Origin: a virus
Taxonomy: Duplodnaviria > Caudoviricetes
DNA: 64,000 nt
Virus record (IMG/VR): IMGVR_UViG_3300047159_000046
Strand: one strand, 5' to 3'
The notes under the pieces are model-generated. The model was not told where the DNA came from, made no database searches, and saw only the letters and a list, made by a program, of their open reading frames with translations. The translations under genes and the position numbers were made by a program. Shown one piece after another: positions 29,805-50,279 of the stretch (positions within the stretch are counted from its first letter, which is position 1; the number at the start of each line of letters is the position of its first letter).

Positions 29805-29999
29805 CTAAAATTGGCAATTCAATTTATTTTTAGTCAGTACTGCATCCACATCAGACATATTGCAGACGTATTCCTTGTACTCTGAAACAAGTATACCTGT
29901 ATTGTATTGCTTTAGTAATTTCCAATCTTTTTCTAAAGATTCTGATGTTGTTTTTGATAAATGTTCTAAAAATGCGTTATATAATTCTTTAGATGTCAT
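29805..29999 (-). CDS. Small hypothetical protein
   Basis: 64-aa ORF divergent from the HTH gene. Confidence 0.5.
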   Translation of the reverse strand: MTSKELYNAFLEHLSKTTSESLEKDWKLLKQYNTGILVSEYKEYVCNMSDVDAVLTKNKLNCQF

Positions 30000-30067
30000 A
30001 CTATTTAATTATTTAAAATTCACACTATAAACAATATTATAGAAATACAAATTTATAATATTTTTTA

Positions 30068-30289
30068 ATGGATGAACTTAATAGATTGAAGGTAGTTCTT
30101 GTTGAACAGAAACGAACAGGCAAATGGTTGGCAGAACAACTTGGTGTGAGTGTAACTACAACAAGTCGTTGGTGTTCTAATGCGGCACAGCCAGACCTTC
30201 AGACGTTGAATAGAATTGCAAAACTCTTAAATGTTTCAATTCTTGATTTAATTAAAAATAATAATCAAACGTATGGCAAGAAAGATTAA
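30068..30289 (+). CDS. XRE-family helix-turn-helix regulator
   Basis: NRLKVVLVEQKRTGKWLAEQLG...SRWCSN..QPDL, a type common upstream of Bacteroidota restriction and defence loci. Confidence 0.9.
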   Translation: MDELNRLKVVLVEQKRTGKWLAEQLGVSVTTTSRWCSNAAQPDLQTLNRIAKLLNVSILDLIKNNNQTYGKKD

Positions 30290-31727
30290 GACTTTAATCG
30301 GAGAAGATGGTATTGACAGAAGAGAAGTGGGATATTATTCTACTCCTGATTTTGTTGCAAGATATATTACAGAAGAAATGCTGAGACTCAACCCAAACGG
30401 AAACTGTGTTTTGGATCCAGCGACAGGCAAAGAAGAACTCCTTCCATACTTTCATGCAGCAAATAAAAGAATAGATTCTTTTGACATAATCGATCACGGT
30501 AATCATAACTACTCGGATTTTCACTGCGCAGATTTTCTTGAATACTATATTAGTAGACTTCAATGTTTGCCAATTGAATGTCAAGAATATGACTATATGA
30601 TTGCCAACCCTCCCTATAATTGTCATGAAGTTTCATATATAAAAGACAATAAAAAAAGGTTGTCATCAGCTTTTTCCGTTGGTGCTTATAATATGTATTC
30701 AATGTTTTTATCTGCTATGATTAGCCTCGCAAAAGATGGATGTTTGATAGGAGTTATTATATCAGATTCCTTTTTGACAGCAACACTTCATGCAAAACTT
30801 CGTGAACAAATCTTTACTCAATGCACAATACATCAACTAATATTATGTCCTAACAATCTATTTTGGTCACAAGGTGCAGACGTAAGGACTTGCATCATGA
30901 TATTACAAAAGGGAACGCAATATCAAAGAAATATTCAAATATCAAATCGATCAAATTCGGTTGAGGAATTTCAGGAAATATTATCAACAAGAAGATTTAA
31001 GCGTATTAGTCTTGACGAAATACGACTGGGAAAGGATAAGTCTGTCGATCAATTTATTATTGACATAGAGCCTGATATTGTATCACTCTTCAAAGCGAAC
31101 AAACCTTTAGGAGATATATTTAAGTGCGTTACGTGCATATCAACAGGTAACGACGAGAAATATCTGTCCAAAGAAAAGAAGGAAGGATTTAGCGTGCCTT
31201 TTTATAAAAACCCTGCAAAAAGAAAATTCAAGACCGAACCTGATGCCTTCATTATTGATGATTATATGGAAGAATCTCTGAAGGTCAAGGACTTTATGGT
31301 TCGTAATAAAGGTTTTCTTAGAGATGAAGGAATTGCTTGTTCTTCAATGGGGTTGCCTTTCAGTGCGGCATATAAACCGAAAGATGCAGTGTCGGGTGTT
31401 AATGCAACCATATTCCCTGGCAGCAATAATATATTTTGGCTTATTTCTTATCTCAACAGTAGTTTGGTTACATATCTTGTAAGAGGTATCTTGATAAGGT
31501 CAAACATGATTACATCTGGGTATGTTTCTCGAATTCCTATTATTGAATTAACACATGAAGAAAAACAACAACTTGATGAGGTCGCGCAAAATGTTGTTTC
31601 TGGAATCCTGTCGGAAAGAAGAGCAATTGAGATAATCGATATTATCGTATTTAATGCCTCAAAAATATCATCCCAGAGTAGAGAAAAAATATTAGAGTTT
31701 GTAGACAATTTAGGGAAGGCTGTTTAA
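30273..31727 (+). CDS. N6-adenine DNA methyltransferase (gamma class, TaqI/Eco57I-like) with C-terminal target recognition domain
   Basis: Motif X GYYSTP, motif I VLDPATG, motif IV IANPPY, then LYxxF-like MYSMF and YLNS. Confidence 0.88.
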   Translation: MARKIKTLIGEDGIDRREVGYYSTPDFVARYITEEMLRLNPNGNCVLDPATGKEELLPYFHAANKRIDSFDIIDHGNHNYSDFHCADFLEYYISRLQCLPIECQEYDYMIANPPYNCHEVSYIKDNKKRLSSAFSVGAYNMYSMFLSAMISLAKDGCLIGVIISDSFLTATLHAKLREQIFTQCTIHQLILCPNNLFWSQGADVRTCIMILQKGTQYQRNIQISNRSNSVEEFQEILSTRRFKRISLDEIRLGKDKSVDQFIIDIEPDIVSLFKANKPLGDIFKCVTCISTGNDEKYLSKEKKEGFSVPFYKNPAKRKFKTEPDAFIIDDYMEESLKVKDFMVRNKGFLRDEGIACSSMGLPFSAAYKPKDAVSGVNATIFPGSNNIFWLISYLNSSLVTYLVRGILIRSNMITSGYVSRIPIIELTHEEKQQLDEVAQNVVSGILSERRAIEIIDIIVFNASKISSQSREKILEFVDNLGKAV

Positions 31728-31856
31728 GCCTCCCCTAAACCTTACTTTTTATTTTTCTTTTTTTCTAATGCAACCGCTATTTCTTTATTGAGCTCAACGA
31801 TATATTTTTTTGATAATATGATTTTTTTTAGAGAAAATATATAACGGACAAGTCCC

Positions 31857-32186
31857 TTAAAGTTTATAACGTTTTGTATAACTATCTATATTTCCTTTAA
31901 CATAATCGTCTCTTTTTGTTCTCGGAATACACTCGTCATACATCCATTTCTCAAAAGTTCTTCTATCATGCGCATCATTAGCTCTATTCTTATAATCATG
32001 CCTTTTGTCATTTGAATCATAATCCAAATCGAGCCAGTCTGCATCCATTTGTTCTTTTCTCGTGTTGGTAGGAAGGCCAAATTTCTCATGCCAAGATTCT
32101 GTTCTATAATCTTCATTGATGGCCTGATTGACAGCGTTTCTAATTATGTTATGGAGCTGTCCCTCTGTTAATCTTACTCTTCTCAT
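31857..32186 (-). CDS. MRRVRLTE-leader family protein, copy 3
   Basis: MRRVRLTEGQLHNIIRNAVNQAINE; ATG at 32186; CTATTTAT at 32206-32213. Confidence 0.85.
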   Translation of the reverse strand: MRRVRLTEGQLHNIIRNAVNQAINEDYRTESWHEKFGLPTNTRKEQMDADWLDLDYDSNDKRHDYKNRANDAHDRRTFEKWMYDECIPRTKRDDYVKGNIDSYTKRYKL

Positions 32187-32282
32187 ATTGTTATTCTTTT
32201 TAAATATAAATAGCAATATGAATAAAAAAAGGAAGATTTAATAAAAATCTCCCTTTTAAGCAAATGAACACTGAATTATATA

Positions 32283-33452: not shown

Positions 33453-33598
33453 GAATCTTATTTTTTATGTTTGAAGCAAAGATATGTGTTTTTAACATAT
33501 ATTATTTCTTTTTAACAGATTTTTTTTGAAAATAAAATTCAAATAAAAAAAGTGATGAATAACTCATCACTTTTAAAACATTAAAAAAATAAGAATCG

Positions 33599-34846
33599 TT
33601 ATTGATGACGCTCGTCATATATCTTTTTATAGAAGTTGAAACGTTTGGCAGTTACAGTTTCTATATCATAAGTATGACGAACAGTAGTAAACAAGTTAAA
33701 TCCCATTTTGGATACATATTCTGGATTATCAGCCAATTTTTTTATGTATTTTACCCATTGTTTATGATCCTTTCCACTATCTACCAACAATCCATTTCCT
33801 AATGGGTTTATATTTCCATTTTTATCAAAGAAATTTGTCAGATCCAAAGTATATGGACCAAAATTTGATGCAATAATAGCTTTTCCGAACCAACCTGCCT
33901 CAATCACTTTAAGCTGAGACTTTACAAGATTAAAATCACATGGCAATAATGGAGCAAGCAATACGTCAATGTCGTTATATAATGTGGCATATTCAGAAAT
34001 AGGCTTATTCCATATTCTTCTGTATGGTTGATCTGATACATTTGGATAATCCTCCATTTGCATATACTGTTTTAGATATGCGACATAATTTGGGTCCTTG
34101 ATTATTTTATAATCATTTGTCAGAATACTTTCATATTTGCACCATACGCTTTCACTTGGCTTAATTGGCTTTACCGTTCTCTCTTTTGTTTCAGGATTGG
34201 TATAAATGGTATTTCCTCTTGTATCGAATCCACACAAAACAATTTGAATTTTATCAAGTGTTTCATTATCAAGTTTGGTAGCAATAGAGGATAACAATTC
34301 TATATCATGCAGATGAGAACTTCCGCATATAAGTCCTATTCTAAGTCTTTTATGTGGAGAAGAAGGTGCAGGTCTGAATTGTGGCTCATAAGGATTAAGG
34401 GCATTTGGAACCACCTCGACATTCTTATTGACAACCTGTCTTACTCTCTTTGCAAATAAAGGAGTGGTTGTAGTTACATAATCAGCAGCTCTAAGATTTT
34501 TTAGAATAGGCTCTTTCCAGTTCTCCACCTTTGCAGCCAAACTCATCGGATGATAATTTCCCAAGTCCCAATTATCGTCAACATCTCCAATGGTGATTAT
34601 GCCCATTTTCTTGGCTTCGTTTACAATAACCGCATTAGGGTCCAAAGCCTTATGAAAATGAATGATATCATATCCTTTTATAAACTCAGCAAAATTATTC
34701 ATTATTCCCAAGTCATAACAGATATCCACATTTACCTCATCATCAAACATGGCTTTCATGAATATATGTGGAGATGTACTTCTGAAATATCCTACTCCCG
34801 CCCTGTCTGATGGACATACCAATATGTTTATTTTTTTAACTGACAT
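33599..34846 (-). CDS. Glycosyltransferase (GT-B fold, GT4-like)
   Basis: GVGYFR, DVDD, ADYVTTTT, VVPNA, DVLLAPL...FN..KSQLKVIEAG...IIAS..GPY. Confidence 0.85.
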   Translation of the reverse strand: MSVKKINILVCPSDRAGVGYFRSTSPHIFMKAMFDDEVNVDICYDLGIMNNFAEFIKGYDIIHFHKALDPNAVIVNEAKKMGIITIGDVDDNWDLGNYHPMSLAAKVENWKEPILKNLRAADYVTTTTPLFAKRVRQVVNKNVEVVPNALNPYEPQFRPAPSSPHKRLRIGLICGSSHLHDIELLSSIATKLDNETLDKIQIVLCGFDTRGNTIYTNPETKERTVKPIKPSESVWCKYESILTNDYKIIKDPNYVAYLKQYMQMEDYPNVSDQPYRRIWNKPISEYATLYNDIDVLLAPLLPCDFNLVKSQLKVIEAGWFGKAIIASNFGPYTLDLTNFFDKNGNINPLGNGLLVDSGKDHKQWVKYIKKLADNPEYVSKMGFNLFTTVRHTYDIETVTAKRFNFYKKIYDERHQ

Positions 34847-34915
34847 TTAAAACTAATTTACTAAAAAATAATACATTTTATTTTATTTGAAACAAATATA
34901 TTAAAAAGTTACTAT

Positions 34916-35160
34916 AAAAAAACGCAGGGCCCGATACATATCTTGACGTATCGGACCCCGAAGCTCTGTCCATTTATGGAGGAGACGTTTTTACTTTTAA
35001 AATTCATTAATCATAAATATCATGATTAGGTATCTGAATCATTATAAATTTCACTTAAATTTCTCATTTCTTAAAGAGGCTTAACCTTTACAGCCCTTAG
35101 GTTTAAATCGCCTCAATCAGTGAGGCTGCAGATTGTTGAATACGTTTCGTTCGTTTCAAC
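34916..35160 (-). ncRNA. Candidate structured non-coding RNA, about 245 nt
   Basis: Consensus promoter upstream, several hairpins, GC-rich terminator with a T7 run, no meaningful ORF. Confidence 0.65.
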
Positions 35161-35164
35161 ACAG

Positions 35165-35196
35165 CAAAGATAGGGCAAAATATTCAGACTACCAAA
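35165..35196 (-). promoter_or_regulatory. Bacteroidota sigma-A promoter (TTTG-N20-TATCTTTG)
   Basis: Plus strand shows caaagata at 35165-35172 and caaa at 35193-35196. Confidence 0.8.
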
Positions 35197-35220
35197 CTTT
35201 TTATCAATTATTATCATAAT

Positions 35221-36066
35221 TTACAAAAGAATTGCATAATGAGATTTTCCATCTGGCCCTTTCACTTTTATCCTTTTCTTTCCCTCGTACATGTCCTTTT
35301 GAGCAGGTTCTTCATTCTCCTCTCTTTCGTCATTCCCCATGAGATTGTCAATCTTGTTATTCAAAGCATCTATTTCCTTGAACATTTCATCAAAATTTTC
35401 CTGAACAGATGTGTTCAGTTTATCAACATAATCAAAAACTATTTCATTTACAATCTCATCAACATCCTTTCTGCTTAAAGAGCCATTTGGTTGCTTGGCT
35501 TCCGTCAACTGACGTCTTTCTGATACGGCAAATCCTTTATTCTGTTGTGGCATTTCATTATTCATTATCATATTGGCATTTTCATCTCTTTCCATCAAAG
35601 CTTTTGCTCTTCCTACATTCATGATATTGTTGGCATTTTGGGTATCTAAAATAGATTTACACCCAATGGATTGCAACTCCGATGTATCAAGTTCTGGTGT
35701 CGGATTCTCTAAAAAAGCCTCTTGTATTGCAGGTTCAAGTCCAGAATTTCTAATTGCAGCTTCTGAAATATTTGACAATGAATTCATCATATTACATTCA
35801 TCAACCACAGACATACTTGTATTATTTGCTACTGGCATCGCTGGCATCATATTGTTCATGTTTGCCATATTGACATGTGGAGCATTTTCACTGATTAGAG
35901 TATTGGCTGCACTTGTTCTCATATTACGCATCTTGCTTTCAAAATCAGCACCTGCGTTTTGATTTGAACTTATATTATCCATACTGTTCATCAATGCCAA
36001 AGATGCATTGATTGACGAATTTTGTGTTCTATTTATATTGCCCATTATTAATTCTGCTTTTAACAA
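35221..36066 (-). CDS. Hypothetical N/M-rich protein
   Basis: 281-aa ORF in the same strand run as its neighbours. Confidence 0.7.
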   Translation of the reverse strand: MLKAELIMGNINRTQNSSINASLALMNSMDNISSNQNAGADFESKMRNMRTSAANTLISENAPHVNMANMNNMMPAMPVANNTSMSVVDECNMMNSLSNISEAAIRNSGLEPAIQEAFLENPTPELDTSELQSIGCKSILDTQNANNIMNVGRAKALMERDENANMIMNNEMPQQNKGFAVSERRQLTEAKQPNGSLSRKDVDEIVNEIVFDYVDKLNTSVQENFDEMFKEIDALNNKIDNLMGNDEREENEEPAQKDMYEGKKRIKVKGPDGKSHYAILL

Positions 36067-49348: not shown

Positions 49349-49430
49349 GTTGATAATATAAAATTAAGTAAATATTAAATTTATCTAAAAAATGATAAAT
49401 AAAATAGAATAATTATTATTTTTTAATAAA

Positions 49431-50279
49431 TTGATTAATATGTTATCAGCAAGCGATATATCAGGAGAACAAATTAAGGAGAACAAAACATTGGCTGTCG
49501 TAATAAACTCACGCAAAAATCAATCTGAATGTTTTGATGCAATACGATTGCTACAAATGACAGCGTTGTTCCCTATTCACGTTTATTTCTATAAGAACAA
49601 CGGAGTCTCTCTTACAAGTGTTTACAACGAAATACAAAAACAGATTACAGAAGAAAGAATATTGTTTATTCATGACGATGTTCAGATTCTGACTGTCGGA
49701 TGGGCAAAAGAATTGGATAGACTGTTCAATGATAATCCAGAATACGGAATCATAGGGGTTGCTGGAAGCAGGGATTTTGATTCAGACGGAGCATGGTGGA
49801 TATATAAGAACATTTATGGTCAAGTCGTTCATACAAAACAAATTAAAGATGAAAAAACAGGTCAACAAGGCACAACTGCTTTCATTACAAAATTCTCAGA
49901 AAAAATTGATAATGACTTGAATGAGGTTGCTGTTATTGACGGACTGTTCATGGCAATTGACAGAGCCAAAGCATCAACAAACTTTGATGAACACGTATCA
50001 GGATTCAATTTCTACGATATAGATTTTTGCCTGTCAAATTATACCACCAATACCACAAAAATAGGAGTTACTACCAAGATAAAAGTTCAGCATGGAGGAG
50101 TTGGAGTAATAAAACCAGAATGGTTTGAAAATAGAAATCTTGTTCTGTCAAAATACAAGGAATATCTTCCAATTTCAGACTTAAACAACTCTACACAACC
50201 AGAAAAAAAGGATATGGCGTTTTTCCATAACGAACACTTCCCTGTTCAGAACACAGAAACAAACACCGAAAATAAATAA
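49431..50279 (+). CDS. Glycosyltransferase-like protein (GT-A fold)
   Basis: SLTSVYN, LFIHDDV, GIIGVAG, IDGLFMA, FDE...F.FYDIDFC. Confidence 0.85.
   Translation: MINMLSASDISGEQIKENKTLAVVINSRKNQSECFDAIRLLQMTALFPIHVYFYKNNGVSLTSVYNEIQKQITEERILFIHDDVQILTVGWAKELDRLFNDNPEYGIIGVAGSRDFDSDGAWWIYKNIYGQVVHTKQIKDEKTGQQGTTAFITKFSEKIDNDLNEVAVIDGLFMAIDRAKASTNFDEHVSGFNFYDIDFCLSNYTTNTTKIGVTTKIKVQHGGVGVIKPEWFENRNLVLSKYKEYLPISDLNNSTQPEKKDMAFFHNEHFPVQNTETNTENK

Follow-up and report, generated by a model that had tools for sequence, protein, structure and literature searches.

A candidate chimeric leader transcript in an allelic 3' UTR of an uncultured giant phage from wastewater

In the 6S (pR' to tR') and oop RNAs of phage lambda, a strong promoter is followed 80-250 nt on by an intrinsic terminator, giving a small and abundant non-coding RNA, and RNAs of this type adjoin structural or replication genes. 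The 5' stabilizer hairpins of bacterial and phage mRNAs, such as that of the ompA 5' UTR, are stem-loops that open at the first transcribed nucleotide or no more than a few bases from it. A promoter, a 5'-terminal hairpin and an intrinsic terminator also follow one another on the minus strand of the phage sequence analyzed here (64,000 nt, IMG/VR record IMGVR_UViG_3300047159_000046; referred to below as the window). The RNA unit that they delimit fills a 374-nt gap at 34847-35220, one of the two largest within the window, between a gene of unassigned function encoding a 274-aa protein (35221-36045, minus strand) and a gene for a GT4-like glycosyltransferase (33599-34846, minus strand). The original prediction took it for a single stand-alone structured ncRNA gene. 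All of the motifs on which it drew (35196-34893, minus strand) were observed in place; their distribution among closely related strains gives a different picture of how they came together.

The window is AT-rich (34% G+C), with genes for a tail sheath, a T4 gp13-like protein, a primase, a RecA-like protein and several glycosyltransferases. Contigs identical or nearly identical to it come from activated-sludge and wastewater metagenomes, Danish and Dutch wastewater series among them. Since the nearest virus record (G001, which does not contain this locus) is rated only 9% complete at 33 kb, and since the thousands of relatives of the GT4-like glycosyltransferase lie on contigs of up to about 400 kb, the source is an uncultured giant phage of wastewater; its promoters point to a host among the Bacteroidota. 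A search of 50,697 phage records with the spacer (blastn, sensitive mode) gave no match, and where the glycosyltransferase is related at 64-65% identity the spacer is not kept and the gene order is different. Homologues of the glycosyltransferase itself number more than 5,500 at E <= 0.001, with many on 200-400 kb contigs; it shares 34% identity with a gene from the 735-kb phage LR756501 and looks like a widespread huge-phage gene.

Strain variation was also noticed at two other places in the window. A 2.37-kb segment of plus-strand genes at 29821-32193, encoding a 73-aa HTH protein and a 484-aa N6-methyltransferase/Eco57I-like protein, is missing from contig L001 (Ga0208695_1001005) and looks like a strain-variable methylase or restriction-type insert. 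The spacer between the glycosyltransferase and RecA-like genes (33453-33598) is likewise variable, directly past its terminator (L026:2748-3055, L028:2748-2987, L151:5026-5277): L026 and L030 have 161 nt with an inverted TATCTTTG box, L028 has a different insert of about 93 nt, and L151 has an 83-aa ORF. In this phage, the spacers that directly follow terminators seem to serve generally as sites of insertion.

The sigma-A(Bfr) consensus of the Bacteroidota consists of a -7 box, TAHHTTTG, and a -33 element, TTTG, about 19-21 nt upstream (PMC6847099). The candidate promoter of the unit (35196-35165, minus strand) fits this pattern, with a -33 TTTG (within GTTTGGTAGT), a 20-nt spacer and the -7 box TATCTTTG; this is the host-type promoter of the original prediction, present where it was described and further supported by the enrichment of the motif in the window and its placement relative to genes, its activity being a prediction. 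Because the G of the -7 box sits at -5 in Flavobacterium promoters (PMC6847099), the transcription start is predicted to be G35160, which is the first base of the 5' hairpin. That the unit is transcribed, and from this base, we infer from sequence, as we would any function that it may have.

The window has 12 occurrences of the full motif, TTTG-N18-22-TAnnTTTG, where shuffled versions have 4.1 +/- 2.2, and five of the six intergenic copies lie 23-55 nt upstream of a start codon, the sixth being the promoter of the unit; TAnnTTTG alone is not enriched (98 observed, 87 +/- 9 in shuffles). The pair GTTTGGTAGT...CCCTATCTTTG, with 21-nt spacing and differing spacers, is found in the loose ends of related RNA-library contigs (described below), and this extended promoter is present as well in four other AT-rich large-phage contigs (L158:6322-6354, L159:1387-1419, L160:11974-12006 and L161:439-471 (-)). 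Such contigs from IMG/VR, of up to 295 kb, bear it as GTTTGGTAGTGTCA...CCTATCTTTG; in L158-L160 only 5 nt separate the -7 box from the ATG that follows, a spacing suggestive of leaderless or nearly leaderless mRNAs. The combination of promoter and first hairpin had no true match in IMG/VR (six chance matches), and a second case of a promoter followed by a C(C/U)GAU hairpin was not found in the window or in the loci retrieved from the phage and its relatives.

These counts bear on the reading in which there is no separate transcript, only a long, variable 3' UTR with the terminator of the 274-aa gene and a promoter-like motif that is inactive. Such a motif might well turn up in an AT-rich genome where TAnnTTTG alone is at background frequency, and both the terminator and an 82-nt module exist without a promoter in other alleles; however, enrichment is seen for the full -33/-7 motif, whose other intergenic copies lie just upstream of genes, and the extended promoter recurs, its spacing conserved, in related copies and other phages. 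We regard the reading as improbable.

About 40 contigs with the same two flanking genes at 96-100% identity were compared, and among them the spacer that separates the 274-aa gene from the glycosyltransferase gene was observed as four discrete alleles of 152, 234, 347 and 371 nt. Allele A (152-153 nt, 4 contigs) consists of the stop codon, a short A-rich stretch and the terminator; allele B (234-236 nt, 15 contigs) is A plus an 82-nt module with a TAATCAT/ATGATTA hairpin; allele C (347 nt, 11 contigs) is B plus an unrelated 113-nt insert; and allele D (371 nt, or 374 to the start codon; 10 contigs and the window) is the form described above. The host-type promoter and 5' hairpins are found only in D. 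Their absence from three of the four alleles, in strains that are nearly identical, speaks against the single conserved stand-alone ncRNA gene first proposed, and, because most strains are without D (29-30 of about 40 contigs), the D unit would be dispensable. The 113-nt insert of allele C (L023:1153-1265) has two hairpins, a CTATTTTA motif and a 27-codon ORF (MVFPLFVLKDFWKRTRVNRYIIPYDNL) with one amino-acid difference (V/F) between strains. In a further three ENA scaffolds, gaps of 100 N lie exactly at the spacer (L016:1300-1400, with L017 and L022 at the same locus), consistent with assembly breaks from alleles coexisting in one sample.

Contigs from four wastewater RNA libraries (three studies) were also aligned to the locus; being assembled contigs, of depths 1-8, they inform on joints between sequences rather than on transcript ends, strand or level, and neither their cover nor the gaps in it are counted as evidence on transcription. 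One of them joins 34998 to 35219, which is the promoter-less joint of the A type, and the C-type junction is likewise seen among them.

What sets D apart is a 5' module at 35046-35218 (minus strand), comprising promoter, leader and gene start, which is missing or replaced in the other alleles. It begins two to three bases past the stop codon of the 274-aa gene and ends at 35046. Its borders share with the 234-nt allele no more than short A/T-rich microhomology (TGATAAT, AATTT); a MITE-like or other small mobile element was considered and rejected, as the borders at 35218 and 35046 have no inverted repeat. The direction of change at the spacer, insertion or deletion, is unrooted, the relatives with a 65%-identical glycosyltransferase having another gene order.

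Allele D differs from the other alleles by 14 substitutions per 100 nt from 35099 to 34900, against 0-5 in most flanking bins; in the terminator segment there are 10 differences in 64 positions between D and A/B/C and none in 64 inside each group. The flanks vary by 1-4% in all comparisons, independently of the allele, and reassort freely, such that a D contig and a C contig differ at only 3 positions in 801 nt of the upstream gene. All 11 copies of D are identical, and their flanks differ by up to 3%. Judged from these alignments, allele D is one linked haplotype block, which probably either came from a relative further removed or has persisted as an allele over a long time, and its invariance would be expected equally of a neutral remnant and of a functional unit that is under constraint or has recently been spreading.

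The 3' part of the unit is shared more widely. The terminator (34960-34916, minus strand) is present in all four alleles and consists of a stem-loop at 34960-34925, with a 15-bp stem and a 6-nt loop, followed by GCG and U7 to 34916; with 8 G-C pairs among the 15 it qualifies as rho-independent, and a consensus scan picked it up independently. Between the two haplotypes, at whose 10 differing positions in 64 this segment can be compared, covariation was observed: seven of the eight stem changes keep pairing, three pairs have changed on both sides (G-C/A-U, U-G/A-U and C-G/U-A), and 94% of cells are paired. Because the stem changes preserve pairing, the terminator is functional and old, and the strong terminator of the original prediction, 15 bp followed by GCG and U7, gains in this way a history of compensatory change. 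Upstream of it, the segment at 34999-35045 (minus strand) is part of the older 82-nt spacer module common to the 234-, 347- and 371-nt alleles and contains the predicted TAATCAT/ATGATTA hairpin (35028-35008, minus strand), a 7-bp helix that is 100% paired among the alleles, with one C-G to U-G change. Since the terminator and this hairpin both exist in alleles that have no promoter, they are best read as the 3' UTR of the 274-aa gene. The CTCCTCC at 34984-34978 (minus strand), which had been singled out as anti-SD-like, is there in the window but is not conserved, the other alleles having CTCATCC. Neither the terminator nor a conserved 24-mer had a true match in IMG/VR.

The 5' module has relatives of a different kind. 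Contigs from the RNA libraries, in runs of all three studies, match 35046-35179 at about 90-93% with other flanks on both sides, the loose ends lying at 35045/35046, 35078, 35139/35140, 35175/35179, 35197 and 35216; these related copies are known as 30-nt loose ends and lists of differences. They were observed ahead of genes: two depart at 35078 into ATG-initiated frames (ATGACAACAACAACT... and ATGACAACTAATTC..., also given as ATGACAACAACA... and ATGACAACTAAT...), and two others, from different studies, depart at 35046 in a manner that extends the short ORF of the window in frame, MRNLSEI being followed across the junction by FSKFEGV(V/K)T... (runs from two studies), with a synonymous GGA/GGG difference between the two. 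Because related copies run into ATG-initiated or extended frames, the 5' module looks like a promoter, leader and gene start of the sort that normally precedes protein genes; under a copy model, which draws on short sequences, its source would be a paralogous phage gene beginning MRNLSEIFSKFEG. A 20-mer of the ORF continuation had no true match in IMG/VR, nor did the leader motif AACGG-GCCCCA-TGGGGC (73 chance matches). In species genomes the same motif gave 26 matches, all of them in coding sequence of genomes with 51-76% G+C, and these were set aside, exact matching being a weak negative.

Folding adds a more qualified picture of this module. The whole 266-nt stretch folds at z = -4.0, a stability that none of 200 shuffles reached, with the 15-bp terminator accounting for most of the signal; taken separately, the 5' module has z = -2.15 (7 of 200 shuffles folded at least as well) and the middle part z = -1.1. 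The 5'-terminal hairpin (35160-35135, minus strand; 9 bp with one bulge), which starts at the predicted first transcribed base, is kept in an RNA-library variant with one loop change and one T deleted. A second hairpin, GCCUCA-CUGAU-UGAGGC (35126-35110, minus strand), competes with a possible long-range pairing of TGCAGCC (35130-35124) with GGCTGTA (35095-35089, minus strand). The long stem of the original prediction (35114-35099 with 35087-35076, minus strand) can be written from sequences that are indeed present, but it is 4.2 kcal/mol worse than the best fold, which contains the GCCUCA/UGAGGC hairpin instead; a fold with TGCAGCC/GGCTGTA as a nested long-range helix comes within 1.2 kcal/mol of the best.

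In the window copy, the promoter is followed by AAUCUGCA and then by GCCUCA-CUGAU-UGAGGC, while RNA-library variants about 93% alike have AACGGCA and CAACAACGGCA-GCCCCA-CCGAU and then ATG-initiated frames. The second hairpin appears among the RNA-library contigs as GCCCCA-CCGAU-UGAGGC (one mismatch) and as AGCCC-GCUGAUUA-GGGCU, so that across related copies the stem varies and the C(C/U)GAU loop is kept. One U-to-C change weakens this hairpin and strengthens the competing long-range helix, and because of it the two cannot be ranked. The covariation asked of the stems by the original prediction is thus found in the terminator, with its three compensatory pairs, but not for the 5' helices at this locus, where the 11 D copies are identical.

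The only ORF of the unit is the 13-codon one first reported (MRNLSEIYNDSDT*, 35067-35026, minus strand), and no longer ORF opens under genetic codes 11 or 4 or with TAG read as Q; the frames that do open under code 4 and TAG=Q are not kept across alleles, and a 31-aa frame through the terminator, also considered, is shortened to 10 aa in other alleles. Codons 1-7 belong to the imported module and the remainder to the older spacer. The hydrophilic 13-aa peptide as the product of a micro-protein gene is very hard to credit: its ATG lies in an A-rich context, 9 nt beyond the point where the long stem ends (35076) and roughly where real ORFs start in related copies, but the peptide is a fusion spanning the recombination junction, its tail comes from spacer which the remaining alleles leave untranslated or read in a different frame, and its hydrophilic composition has no toxin-like character. 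A type I toxin-antitoxin system or other small toxic peptide was rejected, as the only ORF gives this hydrophilic 13-aa peptide and no other is kept across alleles. A 17-aa peptide, MRNLSEIFSKFEGVVTK, is, like the 13-aa MRNLSEIYNDSDT, below workable length for homologue searches.

The same geometry, a promoter, a leader of about 244 nt with a mini-ORF, a terminator and same-strand genes beyond it, would suit a cis-acting leader for the glycosyltransferase and RecA-like genes, working by antitermination read-through in the manner of the 6S RNA of lambda pR'-tR' or by leader-peptide attenuation. We give this reading very little credence. The glycosyltransferase has a promoter and leader of its own outside the RNA unit (34847-34915, minus strand), with the -7 box TATATTTG at 34900-34893 that the original prediction had already pointed out, and this region is retained in all alleles with 0-3 differences in 75 nt; it resembles a promoter region near 49397-49432 (blastn, word size 7, within the window). 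Three alleles are without the upstream promoter; by inspection and in the folds, no segment besides the terminator's own 3' arm complements the 5' arm; and the mini-ORF stops 65 nt before the terminator. With its own conserved promoter, no antiterminator pairing and an ORF end 65 nt away, attenuation of the glycosyltransferase is unlikely, and the attenuator that had been offered as a lesser alternative loses its footing.

Family tests gave no assignment, and the original prediction had made none. No Rfam 15 family reached its gathering threshold anywhere in the window, and a permissive search in E-value mode gave at best 18 bits (E > 1) where the threshold is 91; ARAGORN detected no tRNA or tmRNA in the window. 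For the suggested capture of a host sRNA, 185,579 species genomes were scanned for an exact 23-mer of the module without a match, which with exact matching is a weak negative, and for an antitoxin mimic we found no evidence.

The proposed decoy is part of a broader reading, in which the unit is a functional trans-acting small RNA exapted from a leader, for example to titrate a factor that binds the C(C/U)GAU hairpin of early-gene leaders. Possible though unlikely in our estimation, it accounts well for the completeness of the unit, in which a strong promoter, a flush 5' hairpin and a strong terminator are all present, for a block that is one linked haplotype, invariant in 11 contigs, and for a second hairpin whose stem changes in related copies while the loop is kept. 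Against an essential role of this kind is the absence from 29-30 of about 40 contigs, by which the unit is dispensable; covariation, moreover, is missing for the 5' helices at this locus, a search of the window for complementary targets (blastn, word size 7) gave nothing for the RNA unit above chance level, and the 5' module folds only modestly better than shuffles (z = -2.15). A more specific version, to which we attach a low probability, makes D a functional leader-mimic sRNA gene exchanged between strains, a leader copy cut from its gene whose hairpins would compete for an early-leader factor; were this true, it would be a new RNA family of giant Bacteroidota phages.

The explanation that we favor, at slightly better than even chances, is that the D unit is a chimeric orphan leader transcript made by recombination, dispensable, and using an older 3' UTR terminator. 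The spacer would serve as an allelic slot within the 3' UTR of the 274-aa gene, a slot whose basic content, as in the 152-nt allele, is the terminator that ends a primase-WYL-274aa operon; in D, a copy of about 170 nt comprising a host-type promoter, a structured leader and the first seven codons of another phage gene would have come to lie immediately past the stop codon. Initiation at G35160 would be by host RNA polymerase carrying the housekeeping sigma factor of the Bacteroidota, and the RNA would open with the flush 5' hairpin, the usual form of a 5' stabilizer, and go on through the C(C/U)GAU-loop hairpin common to related leaders and the 13-codon fusion ORF, fused at codon 8 to the old spacer. 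Transcription would then cross that spacer and end at the terminator, giving an RNA of about 244 nt, any activity of which would presumably stem from the leader hairpins.

What is new here is the origin and the allelic behavior of the unit rather than a mechanism. If this chimeric-leader reading is true, it illustrates how a giant phage can gain a new small transcription unit: recombination puts a promoter-leader copy into the 3' UTR of another gene, where the copy borrows the resident terminator. The four alleles circulating in wastewater plants form a natural with/without comparison for orphan leader RNAs. They also carry a caution, that a tidy series of promoter, hairpin and terminator in one genome can be a chimera of parts of different ages.

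Set beside the known systems, the D unit is like the 6S and oop RNAs of lambda in being a short phage unit that runs from promoter to terminator; unlike them, it has a downstream gene with its own promoter and is present in one of four alleles, it is without sequence or Rfam relation to them, and no antitermination signal was seen at this locus. Its resemblance to the bar minigenes of lambda lies in a very short ORF in a small, separately transcribed phage unit; bar ORFs, however, have two to three codons and cause peptidyl-tRNA drop-off, to which nothing at the window ORF points, and the latter has 13 codons and spans a recombination junction. With 5' stabilizers of the ompA type it would share the placement of a hairpin whose first base, going by promoter geometry alone, is the predicted transcription start, G35160.
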